Positions 2,847 through 49,969 of a stretch of DNA of 64,000 nucleotides are shown in pieces; the stretch's first letter is position 1; each line of letters opens with the position of its first letter. The notes under the pieces were generated by a model, which had not been told where the DNA came from, searched no databases, and worked only from the letters and a program-made list of their open reading frames with translations. The stretch is from Escherichia phage vB_EcoM_005, in the sequence record MK295203; one strand, 5' to 3'. The position numbers and the translations under genes are program-made.

Positions 2847-3563
2847 TTAAGAAATTCGTGATGCTGCGATTGCAGACAGGTCCGCGAAGGACAGGGTAGG
2901 CTTAGCGCCTTTTTCTTCAACTGCTTCTGAAATGTAATTCAGTGCCGCAGCATCGTCTACATTTTTATTTATAGCGGCTTCGGTGATTGGGTTTTCAACG
3001 TCAGTTTCAGTCAGGTCTTTAGTTGCTTCCGTAACAGCAACTTCACGCTGTACGTAATTAATATACGCGTCGCGCTTACCAACTTCTTCGAACAGACGAG
3101 CGGTTTCATCTTTCTGCTCTTGGAGTTCTTCTTCCATTTCAGCAACAACATCTACTGCTTCTTCTGGAACAACCACATTGTGTTCAACAAACAGTTCTTT
3201 CATACCCATCAACATGGATTCGAACAGTTCGGCTTTAATACCTTTATCAACAGCCAGCTGGTTTTCAGCCATCCATTCTTTAGCAACGTGGTCAAGGAAA
3301 CGACCGGCAGCTTCTTGGATTTTCTTATCGGCTTTTTCTTCAGCTTCTTCTTTATTTTTCTCTACTTCTTCTTCCGCTTTTTCAGCGATTTTAGCGATGT
3401 GAGATTCAGCCAGTTTCACGGCGTGTTGCTTGACGGTAGCTTCGAATACAGTGCCGAAAGTTTCTTTTGCTTCCGGAGAAATATTAACTGATTCGAAAAT
3501 ACTATCAAGAGCAACGGAAGCATCAATATTCTGTGCTTCGGCGATCAGTTGTTCTTTAAGCAT
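2847..3563 (-). CDS. 22: prohead scaffold protein gp22
   Basis: 238-aa acidic coiled-coil protein MLKEQLIAEAQ...; position between 21 and 23. Confidence 0.85.
   Translation of the reverse strand: MLKEQLIAEAQNIDASVALDSIFESVNISPEAKETFGTVFEATVKQHAVKLAESHIAKIAEKAEEEVEKNKEEAEEKADKKIQEAAGRFLDHVAKEWMAENQLAVDKGIKAELFESMLMGMKELFVEHNVVVPEEAVDVVAEMEEELQEQKDETARLFEEVGKRDAYINYVQREVAVTEATKDLTETDVENPITEAAINKNVDDAAALNYISEAVEEKGAKPTLSFADLSAIAASRIS
2966..2973 (-). promoter_or_regulatory. possible late promoter TATAAATA
   Basis: Forward TATTTATA = minus-strand TATAAATA, about 140 nt upstream of gene 23 start. Confidence 0.3.
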
Positions 3564-3590: not shown

Positions 3591-3598
3591 TATTTATA
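3591..3598 (-). promoter_or_regulatory. late promoter TATAAATA for gene 22
   Basis: Minus-strand TATAAATA 28 nt upstream of gene 22 ATG, overlapping gene 21 stop. Confidence 0.5.
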
Positions 3599-4229
3599 AC
3601 GCTTTTTTCATGGCCTCTGCGAGAGCCATAAAGGCGTCATCGGCACTGGTATCGGTTTCTACCGTTTGTGATTCTGTAATTTGCTTTGGAGTTACATAAG
3701 CATCAGGAGCAGATGGTCCCCATACTGCATCAACACCGACGGTTAATTTATAACCTTCGTTTACACGCTTATATCCTTTGTTGGTTTCGGTTAAAGAACC
3801 AAGACCACGAGAACTAACACCAGGAACCCAACCAGCACGGATATTTGCAGCTAGTTTATCACCTGGGCCATGGTCACCTTCGATGATACGTGCACGTCCA
3901 TAAACATCATTACCTTTCCACCACATATCTTCAATAATAATAGCGGCTTGCATAGGGTCAACGTTAGCACGAGGTGGGTGGTTTAATTCTCCTAAAGCTT
4001 GTTTAGTAGCAACCTGTTCCGCCATATAATCGGCAACGGCTTTTTCCAAAATAGGTTTTGGGTAAAGGCGTTTATTACGGTTAACTACCTCTGCTTGCAT
4101 GAAAATGCCTTCTATATAAAGGCCGGGAGCAAGCCCAGAATTTTTTCCATCATGAGATTCCAACATAGGAACCCCATCGATAATTTCACCTGGTTGTCCC
4201 CAATGTTCGATGAGCAATTCAGGTTTCAT
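3594..4229 (-). CDS. 21: prohead protease gp21
   Basis: 211 aa; ...GEIIDGVPMLESHDGK...GLYIEGIFMQAEVVNRNKRLYP... near-identical to T4 gp21 as recalled. Confidence 0.9.
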   Translation of the reverse strand: MKPELLIEHWGQPGEIIDGVPMLESHDGKNSGLAPGLYIEGIFMQAEVVNRNKRLYPKPILEKAVADYMAEQVATKQALGELNHPPRANVDPMQAAIIIEDMWWKGNDVYGRARIIEGDHGPGDKLAANIRAGWVPGVSSRGLGSLTETNKGYKRVNEGYKLTVGVDAVWGPSAPDAYVTPKQITESQTVETDTSADDAFMALAEAMKKAL

Positions 4230-6557: not shown

Positions 6558-7139
6558 TCATTCATTTTCATGTTTGTGATAACGTGTTATAGCCGAACGA
6601 GTTGATTCAACACCACAGATAGGGCAAATCATCCTTGGCTGATTAATCTTTTTGCCTTTAGCCGGATGTTCTTTACCAAACATCGGATTACCTTCACCAG
6701 ACATAGCTTTGGCTTGGTCTGGTCGCTTACGTCCTTTTAGAGCTTTAGAATGTTCAGGCCTCTTTTTACCTAACCTACAATCTCTTTGTAGCTGTTTGGC
6801 ATGTTCACTCATTGGAATCCCTTTACGAGACATTCCAAAGAACCCGTCAGGCTGAGCTAATGACATATTTATATAGTTTTTAGATTTAACTACATTATAC
6901 TTTATTTGAAGCTCTTTCTCAGCTATACGAGCTTCTTTATCGGTTTCAAATAAAGATAAAATTCTGGTTTTGAAAAGGTGCGGATTTTCTTTACGTTCTA
7001 GATTCCAAATCTTTTTATATGCTTGGGATAATACAGAACCATTATATCCTTCTTTGAGAATCCTTTCAACGTATGTTGAGCCAATATAACGACGGGGTAG
7101 TTTAGACCCCGTGTATATGGTTAAGTAAGTACAATACAT
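6558..7139 (-). CDS. GIY-YIG homing endonuclease with C-terminal zinc finger
   Basis: TIYTGSKLPRRYIGSTY N-terminal motifs, repeated basic H-x-AK segments, C-terminal CPICG...H; free-standing between genes 20 and 19. Confidence 0.7.
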   Translation of the reverse strand: MYCTYLTIYTGSKLPRRYIGSTYVERILKEGYNGSVLSQAYKKIWNLERKENPHLFKTRILSLFETDKEARIAEKELQIKYNVVKSKNYINMSLAQPDGFFGMSRKGIPMSEHAKQLQRDCRLGKKRPEHSKALKGRKRPDQAKAMSGEGNPMFGKEHPAKGKKINQPRMICPICGVESTRSAITRYHKHENE

Positions 7140-7169
7140 TCTAAACTCCTTGACTTCATTGTTTGAATG

Positions 7170-7177
7170 TATTTATA
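7170..7177 (-). promoter_or_regulatory. late promoter TATAAATA for HEG 6558..7139
   Basis: Minus-strand TATAAATA about 30 nt upstream of the HEG ATG. Confidence 0.4.
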
Positions 7178-7206
7178 CTATCATAATTTGCTATAAAAGT
7201 AAAAAC

Positions 7207-7698
7207 TTATTCCCACCAGTCAATAGCAAATGTGCTTTCAAATGTTTCTACCTCGTTATTCGAGTCCCAGTCCATCTGGACTTCACCAACGTTAGTAGGC
7301 CATAAGCCGTAAATTGTAACTTCTTTGGTCACAGTCTTGCCGTCACGATGGAACTGGCGAACTACTGCTTGTTTCTTATATTCTGCAGGTGCTGCACCGG
7401 TAATTTCATTGGTCATACCGTGACAGAGATTCTGCCAATCGACAATTGCTTGACGGGTGTCATGTGCATCATCGTTATAAATGGTAATTGTCCAATCATC
7501 AAACGTACGGTCACCAGCTACGTTAATTTTACGGTTCATGTAGCCAACCGGTACTTTTTCTACAATGCCTGCCGGCATAGGTGCTGCTTTACATTTAAAG
7601 CTAAAGTTTTTACCCAGAAATGGAATTTCCACTTCGAAAAGGTTAGGGCGTGCAAAGTCACCTGACTCGAAGGCCCTAGTGATATCCGTAAGTTCCAT
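7207..7698 (-). CDS. 19: tail tube protein gp19
   Basis: 163 aa; ...ITRAFESGDFARPNLFEVEI...GLWPTNVGE... matches T4 gp19 as recalled. Confidence 0.9.
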   Translation of the reverse strand: MELTDITRAFESGDFARPNLFEVEIPFLGKNFSFKCKAAPMPAGIVEKVPVGYMNRKINVAGDRTFDDWTITIYNDDAHDTRQAIVDWQNLCHGMTNEITGAAPAEYKKQAVVRQFHRDGKTVTKEVTIYGLWPTNVGEVQMDWDSNNEVETFESTFAIDWWE

Positions 7699-7701
7699 AA
7701 G

Positions 7702-8385
7702 TTAGTGTTTCCTATCATATTCTTCAATTAAATGGAATAGCATATCTAAATCTATACTATTTTTAGAATCTTTACTTCGATTCTTTTCCCAAGGAATCAT
7801 TTCTAGATTGCAAATGTGTCCTATTATTTCGGGAGGGACGCCATTTTCAAATCCATATTTGATAGATACCCTATGGTCTAATTGATAAGCTCCTTTAACA
7901 CCACATATCCCGCTTAGATGTCTATTTGGTAGATTATCAACTTCTTCTTTAAAAGTCTTATTAGTAAAAGACCTCACTGAATAATAATATTTATTACGTT
8001 CAGATTTGTTAGGATTCCATCTTCCGTTTTTAGGTCCTGAACAAGCTTCAATCTTTATACCTTTTTTAGACTTAGAAATTTTAGGCCCTTTGGTTTTACG
8101 GATTTTTATGCCTTCATCAGAATTCCAATATTCTTTTCTTGTTTCTGAATAGACTTCCCAACGATGCTCTTTACAGAACTTAGAATTGGTTTCATTAAGT
8201 CGCCCTTTTGTTACAGTATAATAAATGCCACATTTATCACATTTACACGTAACAGCCATTTTTCCAGGACAGTCTTCTAATTTTATTAAATGGGAGCTTC
8301 CACTTTTAACTTGATATCCAAGATTTTTAAAAGCAGAAACATTGCGATTCGTTATAGGTATTTCAAATAGAGTATTAGTAATCAT
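7702..8385 (-). CDS. HNH homing endonuclease (mob-like)
   Basis: C-terminal YQLDHRVSIKYGFENG...HICNLEMIPWEKNRSKD HNH motif, cysteine-rich N-terminus; inserted between genes 19 and 18. Confidence 0.7.
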   Translation of the reverse strand: MITNTLFEIPITNRNVSAFKNLGYQVKSGSSHLIKLEDCPGKMAVTCKCDKCGIYYTVTKGRLNETNSKFCKEHRWEVYSETRKEYWNSDEGIKIRKTKGPKISKSKKGIKIEACSGPKNGRWNPNKSERNKYYYSVRSFTNKTFKEEVDNLPNRHLSGICGVKGAYQLDHRVSIKYGFENGVPPEIIGHICNLEMIPWEKNRSKDSKNSIDLDMLFHLIEEYDRKH

Positions 8386-8407
8386 ACTTATATTTATATA
8401 CCAGAAA

Positions 8408-8436
8408 GTCGCAGGATTGCGCCTGCGACGTTTTTA
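8408..8436. terminator. terminator-like hairpin in 18/19 intergenic region
   Basis: GTCGCAGG-ATTGCG-CCTGCGAC hairpin followed by GTTTTTA; strand assignment ambiguous. Confidence 0.35.
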
Positions 8437-14204: not shown

Positions 14205-14908
14205 TTAATCATCTAAAAAAGCATCATCAAATGCTGTAGGAGGAGCATCTTCTCCTCGTCCATTAATTACAACATAAGGATGTACGAATTCAGCCGCTTC
14301 GGCATTAATCTCATTGACCTCTTCGTATTGAATGTCGGAGATATCAGCCAACCCGTCGATATTCTTAACAGGCATTAAATCAAGCTCACTGAATTCAGGA
14401 ATATTAATACCTTCATTTCTCTGTAATTCAGGACGAAGTTCTTCACCATTGTAAATGAACTTGGTAGCGGTAATTCGACGCTGGACGTTAGCACCTACTT
14501 GATAGAATGGGTCGTAAGGTTGTACCCAGTTAATTTCGAATAGGCTTATTATCCATTGGGAAATAAATCAAGTCGCCTGAAACAGGTTCAGTGCCATTGC
14601 ATTGATGTTTAAAAAGGTTAGGGTTAATTGTGATTGTTACTTCATCATTAACCATCATACCGAACTTACTGAAAGCCTATTCGGTCATTGGCATTTAACA
14701 TATTCACGTGGTATATAATAAAGCTCAATACCACGCATTTGAATAGACTCAGCAACTAAAGCATCAGCCAATGTTTGGGTATTCTCATGCTTGTAATGGT
14801 CGCCATTGGGTCATTGACAAAGGGATTGAGAATTTCGGCTTCGTTCGTATTAGCGTAACCTGTATTATTTTCTAGTTTGGCGAAAAGACTAGAATCAAAT
14901 GTCGACAT
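14205..14908 (-). CDS. 14: neck protein gp14 (multiple frameshifts; not translatable as one ORF)
   Basis: gp14-like segments lie in three frames: [23 protein letters not shown]..., [64 protein letters not shown]...; span of 704 nt is not a multiple of 3. Confidence 0.7.
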
Positions 14909-15521
14909 AACTCCACTCCTTCCATTTAGGTTTATCATTCTTTATTCTATTAATAACTGCGCTTTTGACTATACCAAAATACTCGGCGCATTCTTTACCT
15001 GTCGAGAATACCATTTCTCCGACTCTAACTGCTCTGGCCGCAGGATTTTTACTACCGGTAAAATCTGGGTGTTTCACACGCGTCCACATTAATGCGGTAG
15101 ATTCTTTTCTACGCTTTAGCCCTTCTTCAGTCCATTCTCTTGATTTTGCCGCCTCTGACATTCTTTTTCTTGATTCTATAGAACGGGTTTTACCTATATT
15201 AGGGTTATCTTTAGGATTGTAATAAGAAGGACCACCTTGTCCTCCTTTTACCAAATTAACACACTGAGCAAAATCTTCTTTAAGAATATCGACTAAAAGT
15301 TCTTCGGCTTCCTTTAATAATTCCGGATTACCGAAATCTTTCGACCATAATACCTGTTTTATACAGTTTCGTCCATATTTTTTCTTAGCATTCGAAATAT
15401 ACGTTCCTGAGCCAACGTATGAATCCAGCTTTGGATTAGATTTATCCGAATGTCTTTTACCGCCATAAATTTTTAATCCGTCCGACGTTTCAAACTCAGT
15501 CACGTATAATCTATAAAACAT
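14895..15521 (-). CDS. GIY-YIG homing endonuclease inserted between genes 13 and 14
   Basis: [10 protein letters not shown]...YVGSG motifs, C-terminal HTH; 3' end overlaps gene 14 start; ORF track fuses it to an upstream gene-14 fragment (14895..15668). Confidence 0.75.
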
Positions 15522-15568
15522 AATTATCCAATTAAAATAGGTGTTGGTGGGTCGAGTAAATCTAATTC
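15519..15568. repeat. 50-bp direct repeat, copy 1 (copy of gene 13 3' end)
   Basis: Identical 50-mer CATAATTATCCAATTAAAATAGGTGTTGGTGGGTCGAGTAAATCTAATTC also at 15666-15715. Confidence 0.85.
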
Positions 15569-15572
15569 GAAA

Positions 15573-35494: not shown

Positions 35495-35719
35495 ATGAAA
35501 ACTTATCAAGAATTTATTACCGAAGCTAAAAGACATGAAGATGAACTGCCAATTGTTACAAAAACCTTTGATGGCACACTGGCTGATTTTAAAAAAGTCC
35601 CTAGTGATAAGCTTGCTAAATTGACTGGCTCTATCAATGAAAAAGGTGGCAAGGTCACGTTTTCTGCTGGCGGCATAGCCAATCTTAAAAAACTTTTGAA
35701 AGCCGCTGGCGCTGAATAA
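35495..35719 (+). CDS. internal protein with capsid-targeting leader (ipI position)
   Basis: Starts MKTYQEFITEA; 74 aa; located after 57B where T4 has ipI. Confidence 0.7.
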   Translation: MKTYQEFITEAKRHEDELPIVTKTFDGTLADFKKVPSDKLAKLTGSINEKGGKVTFSAGGIANLKKLLKAAGAE

Positions 35720-35720
35720 A

Positions 35721-35993
35721 ATGAAATCATACCAAGAATTTATCACTGAATCTATTCTTAATGAAGAAGTAAAAATTAACAAATCTGTTAAGACCGTGAT
35801 TGATAATATAAATCATCTCTATAACATTGATTTGACTAATCACGTGACTTTAGGCAATAAGCGAAACTTTTTTGTTTTTGATACTTCAGAACTTGACCAG
35901 AATCAAATTAACAATATTGAACGTTTTGCTAATGAAAAAGGACTGCGTCACGAAACGGCTGGTTATAAAAAGTATGCAATTTATCTAAAATAA
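35721..35993 (+). CDS. internal-protein-like (leader MKSYQEFITES)
   Basis: Same leader family; 90 aa. Confidence 0.6.
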   Translation: MKSYQEFITESILNEEVKINKSVKTVIDNINHLYNIDLTNHVTLGNKRNFFVFDTSELDQNQINNIERFANEKGLRHETAGYKKYAIYLK

Positions 35994-37472: not shown

Positions 37473-37707
37473 AATGAAGACTATTATATAGTCAAGCCGT
37501 CGTATGAAGGACTGATTACCAGCATTCACCGGCGCAACAAACAAGAAACCGGGTCGCTACCGGTAAGTCGTCGGACTGAAGTTCCCTGAATAAGGACTGG
37601 CATTAACAAATCTTTACGATCTGTTAACGTCCCCTTATCTCACAGCTGAAACGGCGCACCGAACACTTGCCTAGCAGGTGGAACCCCGACAAGGTTACCC
37701 TAGGTTA
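37473..37707 (+). ncRNA. candidate small stable RNA downstream of tRNAs
   Basis: About 235 nt without ORF between tRNA-Arg and a strong terminator; T4 has stable RNAs next to its tRNA cluster. Confidence 0.3.
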
Positions 37708-37738: not shown

Positions 37739-37746
37739 TATAAATA
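37739..37746 (+). promoter_or_regulatory. late promoter TATAAATA
   Basis: TATAAATA 29 nt upstream of internal-protein-like gene 37775. Confidence 0.5.
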
Positions 37747-37774: not shown

Positions 37775-38248
37775 ATGAAAACTTACAATGAATTTTTGAA
37801 CGAAAGCGTTCTGACTGAAGCCTCCGCTTCAGATGTTCGCGCTGCAGCAACTGCTGCTATTAAAGCCGGTAAATATTCTTATAAAGATGCTTCTGATGAA
37901 TCTCGGTACAAGTTCTACGACGATATGAGAGCTGAAGGCTTTGTGGGTAACTATGTTACCACCGCCTGGAAAAGCATGGTTGCTTCTGGTGCAGCTTTCG
38001 AAAAAGCTTCTGGTAAACCCGCTCCTAAGGCCGACCCTAAAGCAGCACAAGAAAAAAATATTGCTAAAGGAATTATCTCTAAGTATGAAGCAATTCTTAA
38101 AGAGCTTTTAGTAATCAAAACAGAAGGCCAGAAACTGGCACGAGCACATAGCTTCAAAGATAATCCACATGCTCACGACTTAGAGTATGTTGAAGATATT
38201 CAGAAAATCATCAAAGACCGTATCTGGTCTGCTAAACAAATCAAATAA
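37775..38248 (+). CDS. internal-protein-like (leader MKTYNEFLNES), 157 aa
   Basis: Leader variant, Ala/Lys-rich. Confidence 0.6.
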   Translation: MKTYNEFLNESVLTEASASDVRAAATAAIKAGKYSYKDASDESRYKFYDDMRAEGFVGNYVTTAWKSMVASGAAFEKASGKPAPKADPKAAQEKNIAKGIISKYEAILKELLVIKTEGQKLARAHSFKDNPHAHDLEYVEDIQKIIKDRIWSAKQIK

Positions 38249-42954: not shown

Positions 42955-43818
42955 ATGATGTTAGTTATTGGTTCTCGTGCACTGCACCACGCTGGTCTGA
43001 TTGAAAGTAAGCATATCGAAAATTCTGATTGGGATTTCATTGCCGACCAAGGTTCATGGAACCATTTTAAAGCTCGGATGTTTGGTGCCCATGTTTCTGT
43101 GGATAATCCTGATGTCCAGGCTTTTAAATGCATGTACAACGGTAAAGAAACCTATTTTGAAGCATATATCGTTCGTGCTCTGACTAACGTACGAGAAATT
43201 ACCGGCGAGCTTCAAGACGAAGATTTCACCTCAAGTTATCGTCTCCTGAAATATGCCGAAAATCATATTAAAAAGGACCGTCTTACAGGTTTCTATTGGG
43301 CTACGCCTGATATCTGTCTGGCTATCAAAACCTCTCATCGTTTCCTGAAGAATAATCCTTTCTTCTTGAAAACTATGTCCCACATCAAATACCTTCGTAA
43401 TAAAGGTACCACCTTGAATGAAGAACTCCAGGAAATTATGCTGCAACGTCAAAAAGAAACGTTGAGCTATTCCCATCCTAAATTGGATGTAAACAAATCA
43501 TCGTTCTTTAATGATACCATGGAGAAGTTCGAGGCTTTGCCTGAAGCTATTAAATTGGCTGGTGTGTATGAAGAAACCTGTGTCCTGGCACTAGAACGTT
43601 CACAGGTTCCTAATGACTTCAATATTTCACCATCATTAAGTTTCTATATGGCTCTTGAGAAAGTGTGTACCTCAATCACTTCAGGTTGGTTCCGCACTTA
43701 TGCATGGGAAAACTACCAAGCTGTGGTTAATATGTACAAGACTTTAGGTGAAAGTGACTACATTGAACGATTTAAACGTAATCAACATCTTATTAAACCT
43801 TTCAAAAAGGCTGAGTAA
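42955..43818 (+). CDS. hypothetical protein (287 aa), possible nucleotidyltransferase-like N-terminus
   Basis: Internal ATGATG start after GAGGAAAA; N-terminal LVIGSRALHH...SDWDF loosely resembles a GS...DxD motif. Confidence 0.5.
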   Translation: MMLVIGSRALHHAGLIESKHIENSDWDFIADQGSWNHFKARMFGAHVSVDNPDVQAFKCMYNGKETYFEAYIVRALTNVREITGELQDEDFTSSYRLLKYAENHIKKDRLTGFYWATPDICLAIKTSHRFLKNNPFFLKTMSHIKYLRNKGTTLNEELQEIMLQRQKETLSYSHPKLDVNKSSFFNDTMEKFEALPEAIKLAGVYEETCVLALERSQVPNDFNISPSLSFYMALEKVCTSITSGWFRTYAWENYQAVVNMYKTLGESDYIERFKRNQHLIKPFKKAE

Positions 43819-44468
43819 TGGGACGGCCTCTAAAAGATTTAACCGGACAGGTTATAAATGGTATTAAATTTTTATCGGTGGCCTATAAAGCCACCGGATC
43901 GCCAACCAAGTGGCTTTTATTGTGCCATTGCGGTGAAGAATTCGTTACCACCGCCTCTAGAATAAAAACAGGAAAAACAAAATCATGCGGCTGTGAAAGA
44001 TACCATTATTCCTTTATAAAGAATAGGTATACATATTCCTCATATTCTGCTATGATTGCTAGATGTACAGACCCTAAACATAAAGCCTATCCCGCCTACG
44101 GTGGTAATGGTATAGTTGTTTGTGACGAGTGGCTTCCTAAAGGAAAGAAAGGGTATTTAAAATTTGTCGAGGATATGGGCGAGAGACCTAAAGGGACTTC
44201 AATAAATCGAATAGGTTCTGTTAAAAGGTATAGCAAAGAAACTTGTGAGTGGGCTCCATTTACAATGCAATCATTTGACCAAAGAACGCGTCATGATTCA
44301 CCGGGTCCTATTTCAGGAGTTGTATATAGAAAAGATAGAAATAAATGGGTAGCTTCTATAACAGTAGAAGGCGAAGCCATAGGGCTATATTATGGTGATA
44401 CTGAAAGCGAAGCGATAGAGGCTAGAAAACAAGCTGAACTTAAATATTTTGGAAGATTTAAGTCATAA
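43818..44468 (+). CDS. AP2-domain DNA-binding protein (homing-endonuclease-like)
   Basis: C-terminal ...GVVYRKDRNKWVASITVEGEAIGLYYGDTESEAIEARKQAELKYFG AP2-type motif; Cys-rich N-terminus. Confidence 0.55.
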   Translation: MGRPLKDLTGQVINGIKFLSVAYKATGSPTKWLLLCHCGEEFVTTASRIKTGKTKSCGCERYHYSFIKNRYTYSSYSAMIARCTDPKHKAYPAYGGNGIVVCDEWLPKGKKGYLKFVEDMGERPKGTSINRIGSVKRYSKETCEWAPFTMQSFDQRTRHDSPGPISGVVYRKDRNKWVASITVEGEAIGLYYGDTESEAIEARKQAELKYFGRFKS

Positions 44469-44473
44469 AAGTT

Positions 44474-44514
44474 GTTTACAAGGTCTATAGGTGTGATACT
44501 ATAGACCTATCAAA
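44474..44514 (+). promoter_or_regulatory. early promoter cassette (PeSL-like)
   Basis: Near-identical to the 35429 cassette. Confidence 0.6.
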
Positions 44515-46619: not shown

Positions 46620-46649
46620 TATAAATACCTCCTATACTCAGGAGGTATT
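46620..46649 (+). promoter_or_regulatory. late promoter TATAAATA plus RBS-sequestering hairpin of gene e
   Basis: TATAAATA 46620-46627; hairpin ACCTCC-TATACTCA-GGAGGT (46627-46646) contains the e Shine-Dalgarno. Confidence 0.6.
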
Positions 46650-47081
46650 ATGGATATTTTTGATATGTTACGTCAAGACGAAGGTCTTGATTTAAATCTT
46701 TATAAAGACACTGAAGGTTATTGGACTATTGGTATTGGCCAATTGATTACTAAGAACCCTTCTAAAGATGTTGCTCGTGCTGAACTTGATAAGCTTATGG
46801 GTCGAGTTTGTAATGGTCGTATTACTATGGCTGAAGCTGAACAACTCTTTAACCGATCGGTTGAAAATGCTCGTAGAGCTATTCTGCGTAATCCTAAATT
46901 GAAACCTGTTTATGATGTACTGGACGAAGTTCGTCGTTGTGCTTTAATTAACATGGTCTTCCAAATGGGTGAAGCAGGCGTAGCAGGGTTCACTAACTCT
47001 TTACGTATGCTCCAACAGAAACGTTGGAACGATGCGGCAGTTAACCTGGTTTATCGCAGAGAATGTAATTCCTGCATCTAA
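46650..47081 (+). CDS. e: lysozyme (endolysin) e, C-terminally truncated
   Basis: [33 protein letters not shown]... matches T4 lysozyme to ...AAVNL then diverges and stops (143 aa versus 164). Confidence 0.85.
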
Positions 47082-47094
47082 AGAACTTTTGGCG

Positions 47095-47430
47095 ATGTTT
47101 GAATCTGAAGAGTTCACTGAAGAACTGAATGAGAACCTGACCCAGGCCACTCCTCAGGTTATTCGCGTTCGTAACGCTCTGCAGACAGGCATGCAGGCCC
47201 GCGTATCTAAGACTATGAAGCTGGCATTCACCACTTCTAAAAATGAAGACTATGGCGACGGTATTGCAATGAACACTGGACAGTATTATGTCGAGTGGAA
47301 TGGTGAAACCGGTACGGCTAAGATTCGTCAGACACGTGCAGCGGGTGGTAAAATGTTAGACCTTAAACTGAACGTTAAAGAGAAAGACGTCGCGGCTTTG
47401 TTCAAGAATTGGATGAAAACCTACAAATAA
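47095..47430 (+). CDS. hypothetical protein (111 aa) ending in a stray MKTYK leader fragment
   Basis: ORF replaces the 3' end of e; last codons ATGAAAACCTACAAATAA look like the start of an internal-protein gene. Confidence 0.4.
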   Translation: MFESEEFTEELNENLTQATPQVIRVRNALQTGMQARVSKTMKLAFTTSKNEDYGDGIAMNTGQYYVEWNGETGTAKIRQTRAAGGKMLDLKLNVKEKDVAALFKNWMKTYK

Positions 47431-47462
47431 GTTTACATCTCCTAGAATTATGATAGTATATC
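47431..47462 (+). promoter_or_regulatory. early promoter cassette (variant)
   Basis: GTTTACATCTCCTAGAATTATGATAGTAT upstream of ipIII. Confidence 0.5.
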
Positions 47463-47512
47463 TACAGTTACTTGAACAGACCAATTAAAATATTTACCTT
47501 TAAGGAACCAGT

Positions 47513-48109
47513 ATGAAAACGTATAAAGAATTTATCACCGAAGCTTCTGTAGGAAAGGTCCAAGGCATTAATAAAGATGAGTGGACTTACCGAGGAAACG
47601 GCGTTGACAAAATAGGAAACGGCTTTGACGCTAAAACAGCTCCTATTGAACGGTATTTAGCTACAAAGGCTTCCGATTTTAAAGCTTTCGCTTGGGAAGG
47701 ACTTCGCTGGCGTAACGACCTAAATATTGAAGCTGATGGGCTTAAATTTGGCCATATCCAAGATGTTGTTGCTAGTAACTTGGATGCAGCTTTTATTAAA
47801 GCCGACGGTGACCTTCGTCGCTGGAATTTAAAACTGTTCTCTAAACAGAAAGGTCCGGTATTTGTACCTAAAGCAGGTAAATGGACTATTGATAATAAAT
47901 TGGCTAAAGCGGTTAACTTCGCTGGTCTTGAATTTGCCAAGCACAAATCAGCATGGAAAGGTCTTGATACAATGGCTTTCCGTAAAGAATTTGCTGATGT
48001 TATGACTAAAGCCGGCTTTAAGGCAGAACTAGATACCTCTAAAGGTACGTTTAAAGACGCTAATATTCAGTACGCTTACGCCGTTGCTAATGCAGCCCGT
48101 GGTAATTAA
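47513..48109 (+). CDS. ipIII: internal protein III
   Basis: MKTYKEFITEASVGKVQGINKDEWTYRGNGVDKIGNGFD... matches T4 IPIII as recalled; 198 aa. Confidence 0.8.
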   Translation: MKTYKEFITEASVGKVQGINKDEWTYRGNGVDKIGNGFDAKTAPIERYLATKASDFKAFAWEGLRWRNDLNIEADGLKFGHIQDVVASNLDAAFIKADGDLRRWNLKLFSKQKGPVFVPKAGKWTIDNKLAKAVNFAGLEFAKHKSAWKGLDTMAFRKEFADVMTKAGFKAELDTSKGTFKDANIQYAYAVANAARGN

Positions 48110-48137
48110 TAAAGCGATTTACCTTTAAAGGAAACAT

Positions 48138-48440
48138 ATGAAAACCTATCAAGAATTTATCACTGAAGCCCGCGTAACCGCAGGTAAATTAGAAGCCGCT
48201 GTAAATAAAAAGGCCCATTCATTTCATGATTTGTCAGATAAAGACCGTAAGAAACTTGTAAGCCTTTATATTGACAAAGAGCGTATTCTCGCTCTCCCGG
48301 GCGCTAATGAAGGTAAACAGGCCAAGCCTTTGAATTCTGTCGAAAAGAAAATTGATAACTTTGCTTCTAAGTTTGGTATGTCTATGGATGACCTTCAGCA
48401 AGCGGCTACCGAAGCAGCTAAAGCAATTAAAGGTAAATAA
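48138..48440 (+). CDS. ipII: internal protein II
   Basis: MKTYQEFITEARVTAGKLEAAVNKKAHSFHDL...; 100 aa; T4 order e-ipIII-ipII-denV. Confidence 0.8.
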   Translation: MKTYQEFITEARVTAGKLEAAVNKKAHSFHDLSDKDRKKLVSLYIDKERILALPGANEGKQAKPLNSVEKKIDNFASKFGMSMDDLQQAATEAAKAIKGK

Positions 48441-48443
48441 CAG

Positions 48444-48472
48444 TTTACTTTTACAATAGCTGTGATATAGTG
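48444..48472 (+). promoter_or_regulatory. early promoter (variant) upstream of denV
   Basis: GTTTAC 48444-48449, spacer, TGTGATATAGT. Confidence 0.4.
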
Positions 48473-48500
48473 TTCTCACACAAACATGGAGAACACTAAA

Positions 48501-48917
48501 ATGACTCGTATCAACCTTACCTTAGTATCTGAATTGGCTGACCAACACTTAATGGCTGAATATCGCGAATTACCACGTGTTTTCGGTGCAGTTCGTAAGC
48601 ATGTTGCTAATGGTAAACGTGTTCGTGATTTTAAAATTAGCTCTACTTTTATCCTTGGTACAGGCCATGTTACATTCTTTTACGATAAGCTTGAGTTCTT
48701 ACGTAAACGCCAAATCGAGCTTATAGCCGAATGTTTAAAACGTGGTTTTAATATCAAGGACACTACGGTCCAGGACATTAGTGATATTCCTCAGGAATTC
48801 CGTGGTGACTATACTCCACACGAAGCTTCTATTGCTATATCTCAGGCCCGTTTGGACGAAAAAATTGCACAACGCCCTACCTGGTACAAACATTATGGTA
48901 AGGCTATTTACGCTTAA
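48501..48917 (+). CDS. denV: endonuclease V (pyrimidine-dimer DNA glycosylase) DenV
   Basis: [35 protein letters not shown]... near-identical to T4 DenV; ORF track starts at upstream ATG 48486. Confidence 0.9.
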
Positions 48918-48959
48918 TTAAATCCGTGATAGAATACTTCTATCAACTTAAGGAATAAT

Positions 48960-49259
48960 ATGAAAACTTATCAAGAATTTATTACAGAAGCCAAAGCTCC
49001 TAAAGCATTTCAAATTGGGGTTCAAGGCAATTTAGACCAAGAATATGTTGATGCTATTGTAGCAAGCCTCGGTAAACAGGGTGTACAAGTGGATTTGGTT
49101 GATTTTACCAAAGGTAATACTTTTAATATTGTTACGTCTAAAGGCTCTTTAGCTAAAGTTAAAAAGGCTTTTGGTGTAGCACAAGCCTACGAAATCGACC
49201 ACTCTGAATTAGAAAATAAAGGTCGCCAGAACACAATTAAAGGTTCTGGTTCTTTCTAA
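48960..49259 (+). CDS. internal-protein-like (leader MKTYQEFITEA), 99 aa
   Basis: Same capsid-targeting leader. Confidence 0.65.
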   Translation: MKTYQEFITEAKAPKAFQIGVQGNLDQEYVDAIVASLGKQGVQVDLVDFTKGNTFNIVTSKGSLAKVKKAFGVAQAYEIDHSELENKGRQNTIKGSGSF

Positions 49260-49423
49260 TAAAGGCAAGCCGACCCTCTCCTCATGAACGTCGCGTCCTC
49301 TGAGTGATGGACCTTTCCCTACCTGTAATAAGGTCGAGCCCAAGTGCGGTAAAGGGTTTACATACGGATACATGGACGAATTATGTGCCAAGGAATGGCC
49401 CCACAACTTAAAAAGAGACAATT

Positions 49424-49969
49424 ATGAAAACGTTTTTAACCGGTAGTTATCTATCCCTGATGAATGCTTTTGCAAACCATTCTGATGCTAGAGTAGAACA
49501 CATTTGTAATAGTGGGTTTTATGTACCTGATTCACAAACCCTGTTTAAAGAATGCTGCACCTTAAAACTTGATGGTGGGCGCCAATCCGGTAAAACTAAA
49601 GCAGTATCCATTTTTGCCACAGAATGGTTAGCTAATGGCGGCTCTATTGTTATTTTATCTAATAACACAGCATATGCCAATGTTTCGGCTACTGCAATCC
49701 GAAAGGAATATTTTAATAACCATACAGAAAGTATTAAGTACCGTTTGTACACTGATTCTGTTCGTAGTTTTATTGGTAATACTGCATGCAAATTCCGTGG
49801 ATTATCGCTTTCACGTGTTCTGTATATAATTGATGAGCCTGTTAAAACACCTAATATGGATAAGATTTATGATGCCCATATAAAGGTGGTGCAACATTGC
49901 TGTCATGCATCATGTGTCGAAACCAATCAAACTGCGCGTCCTCTGTTCTTTGTGATAGGAATGCAATGA
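49424..49969 (+). CDS. small P-loop NTPase (181 aa)
   Basis: Walker A GGRQSGKT, Walker B VLYIIDEP. Confidence 0.6.
   Translation: MKTFLTGSYLSLMNAFANHSDARVEHICNSGFYVPDSQTLFKECCTLKLDGGRQSGKTKAVSIFATEWLANGGSIVILSNNTAYANVSATAIRKEYFNNHTESIKYRLYTDSVRSFIGNTACKFRGLSLSRVLYIIDEPVKTPNMDKIYDAHIKVVQHCCHASCVETNQTARPLFFVIGMQ

Follow-up and report, generated by a model that had tools for sequence, protein, structure and literature searches.

Why should the leader that opens the internal-protein (IP) genes of a T4-type phage turn up at the end of an open reading frame (ORF)? This question is raised by a stretch of 64,000 nucleotides (nt) from Escherichia phage vB_EcoM_005 (sequence record MK295203), called the window below, in which six ORFs open with such a leader and a seventh copy, ATGAAAACCTACAAATAA, stands at positions 47413-47430 of the plus strand, where it supplies the last five codons (M-K-T-Y-K) and the stop of an ORF lying between the lysozyme gene e and ipIII. 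The initial annotation, made from the letters alone, took this copy for a stray fragment of a leader. We consider it very likely that the window carries T4-type IP genes in two loci, and that the MKTYK tail is the native end of a seventh IP gene, the leader of which has been lost in a technical gap of 99 nt.

A six-frame scan identified the tetrapeptide MK[TS]Y at exactly seven sites, all on the plus strand (35495, 35721, 37775, 47413, 47513, 48138 and 48960). Six of these sites are the starts of full ORFs of 74-198 amino acids (aa) that open with MK(T/S)Y(Q/N/K)EF(I/L)(T/N)E(A/S), and all six leader-bearing ORFs listed previously are thus present at the starts given for them. The individual leaders are MKTYQEFITEA (35495, 48138 and 48960), MKSYQEFITES (35721), MKTYNEFLNES (37775) and MKTYKEFITEA (47513), with Y4, F7, I/L8 and E10 present in six out of six. 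In order-2 Markov simulations using the trinucleotide statistics of the window, about 0.8 occurrences of MK[TS]Y were expected, versus seven seen; for a 15-nt leader pattern the expectation was 0.04, also versus seven seen, this pattern having been drawn up afterwards so as to take in the fragment. The six full leaders far exceed what chance would produce.

The clearest homologues of known internal proteins are encoded in the e-to-vs.8 region. The ipIII gene (47513..48109, plus strand) encodes 198 aa with 86% identity to T4 IPIII (PHROG 5341, E 2e-114), and the adjacent ipII gene (48138..48440, plus strand) encodes 100 aa with 94% identity to T4 IPII over 86 aligned residues (PHROG 7857). Both are direct orthologues of the T4 genes, in the same e-ipIII-ipII-denV order and orientation; the leader has Thr9 where that of T4 has Ala9, and the ipIII product of the window has a 6-residue insertion. 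Beyond denV, a gene at 48960..49259 (plus strand, 99 aa) belongs to PHROG 2667, 'internal head protein' (E 2.7e-43; JS98 orf112, RB32 ORF139c-like), and its leader is kept in homologues. A moderately confident AlphaFold model of its product (predicted local distance difference test, pLDDT, 75) shows a small alpha/beta fold, for which a fold search gave just weak generic ferredoxin/ACT-like matches (E ~0.01, template-modelling score 0.4-0.5) and no hint of function.

Three further leader-bearing genes, all on the plus strand, are found at 35.5-38.2 kb. The first (35495..35719) encodes a 74-aa Ip8-like protein with leader MKTYQEFITE/A, a mature mass of 6.7 kDa and an isoelectric point (pI) of 9.6; it matches PHROG 8765, 'internal virion protein' (E 8e-27), and is annotated as Ip8 in phage QL01. 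The second (35721..35993; 90 aa, leader MKSYQEFITE/S) is Ip9-like, with a match to PHROG 7673, 'internal head protein' (E 2.5e-55), and annotation as Ip9 in QL01 and WG01. The third (37775..38248; 157 aa, leader MKTYNEFLNE/S, mature pI 9.2) is a member of PHROG 2280, homologues of which occur in 509 phage records, and all 30 of the 30 matches listed are hypothetical or unannotated; a late-promoter motif, TATAAATA, is located at 37739, upstream of this gene. No significant Pfam family was obtained for any of eight IP-type proteins. PDB sequence searches (E<=10) with the products of the 35495, 35721, 37775 and 48960 genes did not return the T4 internal protein IPI* (PDB 2JUB), nor did searches with these four extra internal proteins give any other meaningful match. 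By homology and context, the six intact ORFs are ordinary IP genes, with packaging and cleavage of their products predicted.

What the leader would do can be inferred from T4 biology and from homology. The product of each gene would be small and basic and would carry a capsid-targeting sequence (CTS) in its first 10 residues. Through this sequence it would bind to gp22, which forms the scaffolding core of proheads, with Y4 and F7 expected to matter for targeting. The gp21 protease would then cut after Glu10, I/L8 and E10 serving in processing, and the mature protein would stay in the head to be injected with the DNA; at least some internal proteins neutralise host defences. According to T4 work summarised in PMC9026906, residues 4 and 7 of the T4 CTS function in targeting and residues 8 and 10 in processing. 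The leaders in question end in (L/I)-x-E with a small residue next to it, the motif cut by gp21 (ITE/A, ITE/S, LNE/S and IAE/N), and removal of 10 residues leaves mature forms of 6.7-20.8 kDa with pI 8.0-9.7, which are thus small and, like the internal proteins of T4, basic. The prohead protease itself is encoded on the minus strand at 3594..4229 (GELNHPPRANVDP motif; PHROG 207, 'head maturation protease', E 3e-76), next to the scaffolding core protein gp22 (2847..3563, minus strand; PHROG 237), so that both partners are found in the same window as the leader genes, as suits the IP class. The view of these ORFs as T4-type IP genes with a capsid-targeting leader is therefore borne out by the homology to T4 IPIII and IPII, the PHROG families, the Ip8 and Ip9 annotation, and the presence of gp21 and gp22.

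The same leader DNA could be thought of in another way, namely as mainly a translation-initiation and recombination module, in which case the products of PHROG 2280 and PHROG 15461 (the family of the ORF before ipIII, see below) would remain unpackaged and act in the infected cell. At the 35.5-38.2 kb locus the leader does lie inside a 62-nt direct repeat that reaches upstream of the ATG and spans the ribosome-binding region too; databases label PHROG 2280 and PHROG 15461 as hypothetical; and infection can be rescued by host expression of a T4 IPIII without its CTS (PMC9391042). However, the peptide, including Y4, F7, I/L8 and E10, is conserved despite synonymous differences in the DNA, and foreign proteins that carry just the first 10 residues of IPIII are packaged in T4 (PMC9026906), which makes this proposal very unlikely. 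Internal proteins are considered to be a diverse defence set (PMC3012670). T4 IPI* inhibits the type IV restriction enzyme GmrSD (PMC3012670) and IPIII is needed for growth of T4 on E. coli ECOR17 (PMC9391042), so that an anti-defence role can be regarded as established in the case of T4 IPI and as likely in that of IPIII. The earlier suggestion that the additional leader-bearing genes are candidates for injected anti-defence proteins agrees with this accepted view (PMC3012670, PMC9391042); since it is the accepted working model, it has little significance as a discovery.

The seventh site requires a different explanation, as it lies at the end rather than at the start of an ORF. This ORF was previously delimited as 47095-47430; ATGAAAACCTACAAATAA does indeed end it, but the ORF begins at 47032, and 47095 is an internal Met codon. 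The 132-aa ORF 47032-47430 consists of the body of a PHROG 15461 protein (the JS98 orf114 family; codons 7-132, 47050..47430, plus strand), for which an ATG that happens to lie in frame at 47032 serves as the start. PHROG 15461 is carried by 48 phage records, and the intact 132-aa ORF of Salmonella phage ABTNLsp5 matches it with E 1.5e-91. In relatives, the gene begins with MKTYNEFIAE and overlaps the stop end of e: in ABTNLsp5, the sequence GCC TAT GAA AAC TTA TAA of e, shifted by one base, reads ATG AAA ACT TAT AAT. A start of the type MK(T/S)Y(N/K)(E/Q)F(I/L) is found in the copies of ABTNLsp5, AnYang, QL01, JS98, Marfa, 4S and Cronus, and likewise in all 18 database homologues save one MKPY variant. 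The window copy at 47032-47430 lacks the leader, whereas every relative's copy has it. Because the ORF that carries the supposed fragment thus belongs itself to a leader-type family, the count of seven leader-type genes stands, though not as the six genes plus a fragment that the initial annotation had described: the fragment's own ORF is the seventh. Judging from these comparisons, the real phage very probably carries seven intact leader genes. An AlphaFold model of the PHROG 15461 protein (mean pLDDT 56) gave nothing below E 0.05 in a Foldseek search of the PDB.

The start codon of the PHROG 15461 gene is located 11 nt upstream of the e stop, in another frame (in ABTNLsp5, with equivalents in AnYang, QL01 and Marfa), and gene e is preceded by the late-promoter motif TATAAATA at 46620. 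As the start codon overlaps the end of e in another frame, the arrangement suggests that the gene may be translationally coupled to late-expressed e.

If the leader belongs at the N-terminus, the leader-like C-terminus has to be accounted for. An MKTYK-type ending accompanies the PHROG 15461 gene wherever the gene sits. The copies of E. coli and Klebsiella phages end in WMK..K before the stop, and across the family the tails read TYK, THK, SYK, IYK, VHK, THAK (Serratia phage 4S) or K (P0017); the tail is absent in Erwinia phage Cronus, which ends in WLK, and a WLKK ending is also seen in the family. Tyr and His interchange even between close Klebsiella-phage copies, and among the more distant homologues His is found in three of six (P0014, P0015 and 4S), the tail being shorter or unrelated in the other three. 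The N-terminal leaders of the same proteins, unlike these tails, are nearly invariant. Most simply, W-(M/L)-K can be read as an old C-terminus followed by a short drifting tail, whose likeness to the leader in this clade would be fortuitous. The tail drifts like ordinary coding sequence and the relatives have their leader at the N-terminus, and for these reasons MKTYK does not appear to be a displaced leader; the description of a stray fragment cannot be maintained for what is the native C-terminus of a family with a proper N-terminal leader in every relative.

It could be objected that MKTYK is a recombination scar, that is, the first five codons of a lost downstream IP gene, fused in frame and now travelling with the cassette. 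The chance of meeting the 15-nt leader pattern is low (0.04 expected), IP genes can abut (the 35495 ORF stops at 35719, just before the start of its neighbour at 35721), leader-by-leader recombination is known to occur (phage IME08, see below), and the locus holds another junction relic, namely the copy of the e 3' end after ipIII in T4. But W-(M/L)-K is kept as far as the homologues of Erwinia and Serratia phages, with tails K, KK and KTHAK before the stop; the tail varies precisely where the leader is fixed (T/S/I/V and Y/H), the 18 real leaders showing a single T3P variant; His in three of the six more distant homologues suggests that Tyr is derived; and a low-confidence model would place the MKTYK residues at the end of the C-terminal helix. 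On balance we regard a scar as unlikely and retain the reading of the tail as a native C-terminus.

Why, then, is the leader missing from the window copy? Compared with ABTNLsp5, QL01, AnYang and at least 10 other phages, 99 nt are absent between 47049 and 47050. In relatives this stretch carries the 31 terminal codons and the stop of e, together with codons 1-6 (MKTYNE) of the PHROG 15461 gene, and its absence explains why the window copy is without a leader. At least 12 relatives have 229-230 nt where the window has 131, and the gap is found in none of them. The lysozyme gene is affected accordingly: its first 133 codons (46650..47049, plus strand) are followed by an out-of-frame stretch to a stop at 47081, giving an ORF of 143 aa in which the homology to T4 lysozyme (164 aa) ends at AAVNL, residue 133; in a PDB search the alignment to T4 lysozyme covers residues 1-140, of which only the first 133 show real identity. 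The ends at 47049/47050 are blunt, and no microhomology was found at this junction. Restoring the absent 99 nt would give back both the end of e and ATGAAAACTTATAATGAA.

The gap does not stand alone. A comparison over the entire window revealed 19 gaps of identical size versus both ABTNLsp5 and QL01, at ~1524, 3004, 9413, 16370, 19202, 19463, 20590, 21017, 23297, 23984, 27276, 27471, 30242, 31004, 31230, 37663, 43520, 45142 and 47049. Eleven of the 19 measure 99 nt and the others 97, 102, 106, 123, 133, 146, 147 and 173 nt, and the window adds just 0-3 nt at each. Several essential genes are shortened: the major capsid protein gp23 has 462 aa versus 519 in relatives, the tail sheath gp18 611 versus 660, the hub protein gp5 473 versus 580, and the scaffold gp22 238 versus 271, the last because of another 99-nt gap at ~3004. 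A phage with all of these gaps in gp23, gp22, gp18 and gp5 could not be viable. Since the gap at 47049/47050 is one of many of the same size, several of which cut essential genes, we read it as technical; the 99-nt gap, together with the loss of the lysozyme end and of the start of the IP gene, is most likely a defect of the sequence record. That hardly any gap is shorter than 99 nt suggests a technical origin such as excised stretches or collapsed assembly bubbles, 99 being 2k-1 for k = 50. No obvious shared motif or composition was detected in the 19 missing segments. From 47050 to ~49400 the window is colinear with AnYang, bar an extra PHROG 3966 cassette in AnYang, and this part holds no technical gap.

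A private deletion, leaving a decapitated IP gene and a truncated lysozyme, is rejected as a reading of the junction, as the 47049 gap is one of many across the window. In its fullest form, this alternative describes a genuine deletion in a lysozyme-defective phage, in which the decapitated IP gene has acquired a hybrid N-terminus that is perhaps still processed. The in-frame ATG at 47032 does restore a 132-aa ORF that retains F7, I8 and E10, and a viable T4 deleted for e, ipIII and ipII, with an s12 mutation, has been used experimentally, a genotype cited in PMC9026906. Yet there are 18 further gaps, ten of them exactly 99 nt, common to the comparisons with two independent relatives, and these gaps take at least 33 codons from the major capsid protein, the scaffold, the tail sheath and the gp5 hub. 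Moreover, the junction shows no microhomology, no relative has the gap, the ATG at 47032 is not preceded by a Shine-Dalgarno sequence, and the targeting residue Y4 is lost. A genuine deletion is thus highly improbable, and the technical explanation is followed here. It implies that any truncation, frameshift or "fragment" in the window needs to be checked against relatives first, given the 19 short gaps.

With the 99 nt restored, the two loci can be compared with those of related phages. The 46-50 kb region is that of a JS98-like T-even phage (genus Dhakavirus), with 93-97% identity and with ABTNLsp5, JS98, AnYang, MX01 and QL01 as top matches. The plus-strand order is nudE, e, the unnamed ORF discussed above, ipIII, ipII, denV, the small "internal head protein" gene and vs.8, which is the T4 e-ipIII-ipII-denV-vs.8 region read along transcription. 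The denV gene (48486..48917, plus strand; endonuclease V, annotated in relatives) is not an IP gene but a fixed gene that parts two cassette slots. The three ORFs at 35495, 35721 and 37775 are all downstream of genes 1, 57A and 57B; the first two follow directly after 57B, and the third comes after two tRNA genes, ~1.8 kb beyond the Ip9-like gene. The leader genes thus lie either downstream of 57B or between e and vs.8, and the interval 47095-49259 is the e-to-vs.8 IP locus, the 57B-to-tRNA region at 35.5-38.2 kb being the second. The position held here by the Ip8-like and Ip9-like genes is the one that we take to be occupied by ipI in T4, downstream of 57B. IPI* itself shows the same leader logic and the same presumed route (packaged, cleaved, injected), but no sequence similarity, and a recognisable ipI orthologue is lacking in the phage of the window.

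This arrangement is the one known for the polymorphic IP family of T-even phages (Ip4-Ip9 and others; Repoila et al. 1994 and Comeau et al. 2007, cited in PMC2839356), which likewise consists of unrelated small basic proteins sharing only the CTS, occupies just two hypervariable loci with early-promoter/stem-loop elements at their flanks, and differs in presence or absence between close relatives. The number of IP variants given in PMC2839356, which also describes the two hypervariable loci, exceeds 30. The occurrence of multiple CTS-bearing IP genes in two hypervariable T-even loci is therefore already known, having been described since the 1990s. Unlike that family, PHROG 15461 and PHROG 2280 have no IP label in PHROGs or among the GenBank matches listed, and the PHROG 15461 gene starts within the end of e, out of frame.

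In the e-to-vs.8 locus, the order in the window with the gap restored is e, 15461, ipIII, ipII, denV, 2667 (PHROG families being given by number). AnYang has the same order with PHROG 3966 added before 2667. In two relatives ipII is missing, QL01 having e, 15461, ipIII, denV, 2667 and ABTNLsp5 e, 15461, ipIII, denV, 3966, 2667. The order in JS98 is e, ipIII, 15461, denV, 2667, in Marfa e, 15461, ipII, denV, ipIII and a 2667-like gene, and in IME08 just e, ipII, denV, 2667. In most phages the PHROG 15461 gene is thus flanked by e and ipIII, whereas in JS98 its neighbours are ipIII and denV, and the presence or absence of ipII, ipIII and PHROG 3966 varies from phage to phage. The right edge of the PHROG 15461 cassette is always TAA/GTTTAC, the early promoter remaining with the slot. 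A T4-type early promoter (GTTTACA ... TG.TAGTAT) is present in the window at 47431..47459 (plus strand) and is part of the slot rather than of the cassette; its counterpart in JS98 comes directly after e, where the PHROG 15461 gene is absent.

The left edge is illuminated by IME08, in which PHROG 15461 and ipIII have been lost and ipII (1432-1734) starts at the e-overlap position with a chimeric leader, MKTYN-EFITEARV. The first five codons derive from PHROG 15461 and the others from ipII, with the crossover within the shared GAATTTATC, which provides a clean example of leader-mediated cassette exchange. In T4, a degenerate copy of the e 3' end with a GTTTAC promoter (ACTTGGGACGC..A..AAAGC.GTTTAC) follows immediately after the ipIII stop (~2025-1995, minus strand, compared with 2730-2695 in the extracted T4 sequence), and from its sequence it appears to be a junction relic of the insertion or duplication of a cassette. 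We propose that cassettes would recombine on the left via shared ribosome-binding-site and leader DNA, and on the right would end at slot-specific early promoters. Shuffling of two small hyperplastic IP loci via flanking early-promoter elements has been described (PMC2839356), and the modular PeSL (promoter early stem-loop) exchange of Arbiol et al. 2010 (PMC2839356) involves the same cassette ends at TAA/GTTTAC early promoters; in contrast to that scheme, the left recombination site here, as seen in the IME08 chimera, is a coding leader plus ribosome-binding region. Slot shuffling as seen in these alignments fits the published picture, to which the leader would add left-hand homology.

Several points weigh against the overall interpretation. 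The likeness of the 15-nt tail to a leader is improbable at a random site (0.04 expected per window), and the IME08 chimera depends on a single published assembly. We infer virion presence, cleavage and anti-defence activity of these proteins from their sequences, and the Ip8-like, Ip9-like, PHROG 2280 and PHROG 15461 proteins share only the leader with experimentally studied internal proteins; literature on Ip7/Ip8/Ip9 and on virion proteomics of JS98-type phages yielded nothing usable. It is possible, if on the doubtful side, that PHROG 15461, PHROG 2280 and the PHROG 3966 of relatives are unrecognised packaged and injected anti-defence proteins, with the leader DNA as a portable recombination site for hopping between slots. 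In any case, PHROG 15461 and PHROG 2280, two widespread leader families annotated as just hypothetical, are low-cost candidates for proteomics and anti-defence screens.

Some minor features of the window were also noted. A GC-rich non-coding spacer of ~160 nt (49260-49420) separates the last IP gene from vs.8 and is conserved in ABTNLsp5; for 49258-49440 no Rfam family was found, and its predicted folding is no better than that of shuffled sequences (z-score 0). The 146-nt gap at 37662/37663 is located just upstream of the 37775 gene, and in relatives the corresponding 146-nt stretch has at its end a sequence resembling the T-arm and acceptor of a tRNA (GGTTCGAATCCCGGCGTTTCGTACA). ARAGORN and Rfam call no feature in this stretch, which may represent a T4-type small stable RNA. 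Finally, the window contains five inserts of ~650-770 nt relative to ABTNLsp5, with one ORF each (~660-1335, 6563-7205, 7686-8433, 14795-15571 and 43763-44474). GIY-YIG-like N-termini could be recognised in two of the insert ORFs (680-1339 and 6558-7139), and the five inserts are probably homing endonuclease genes of the seg/mob type.

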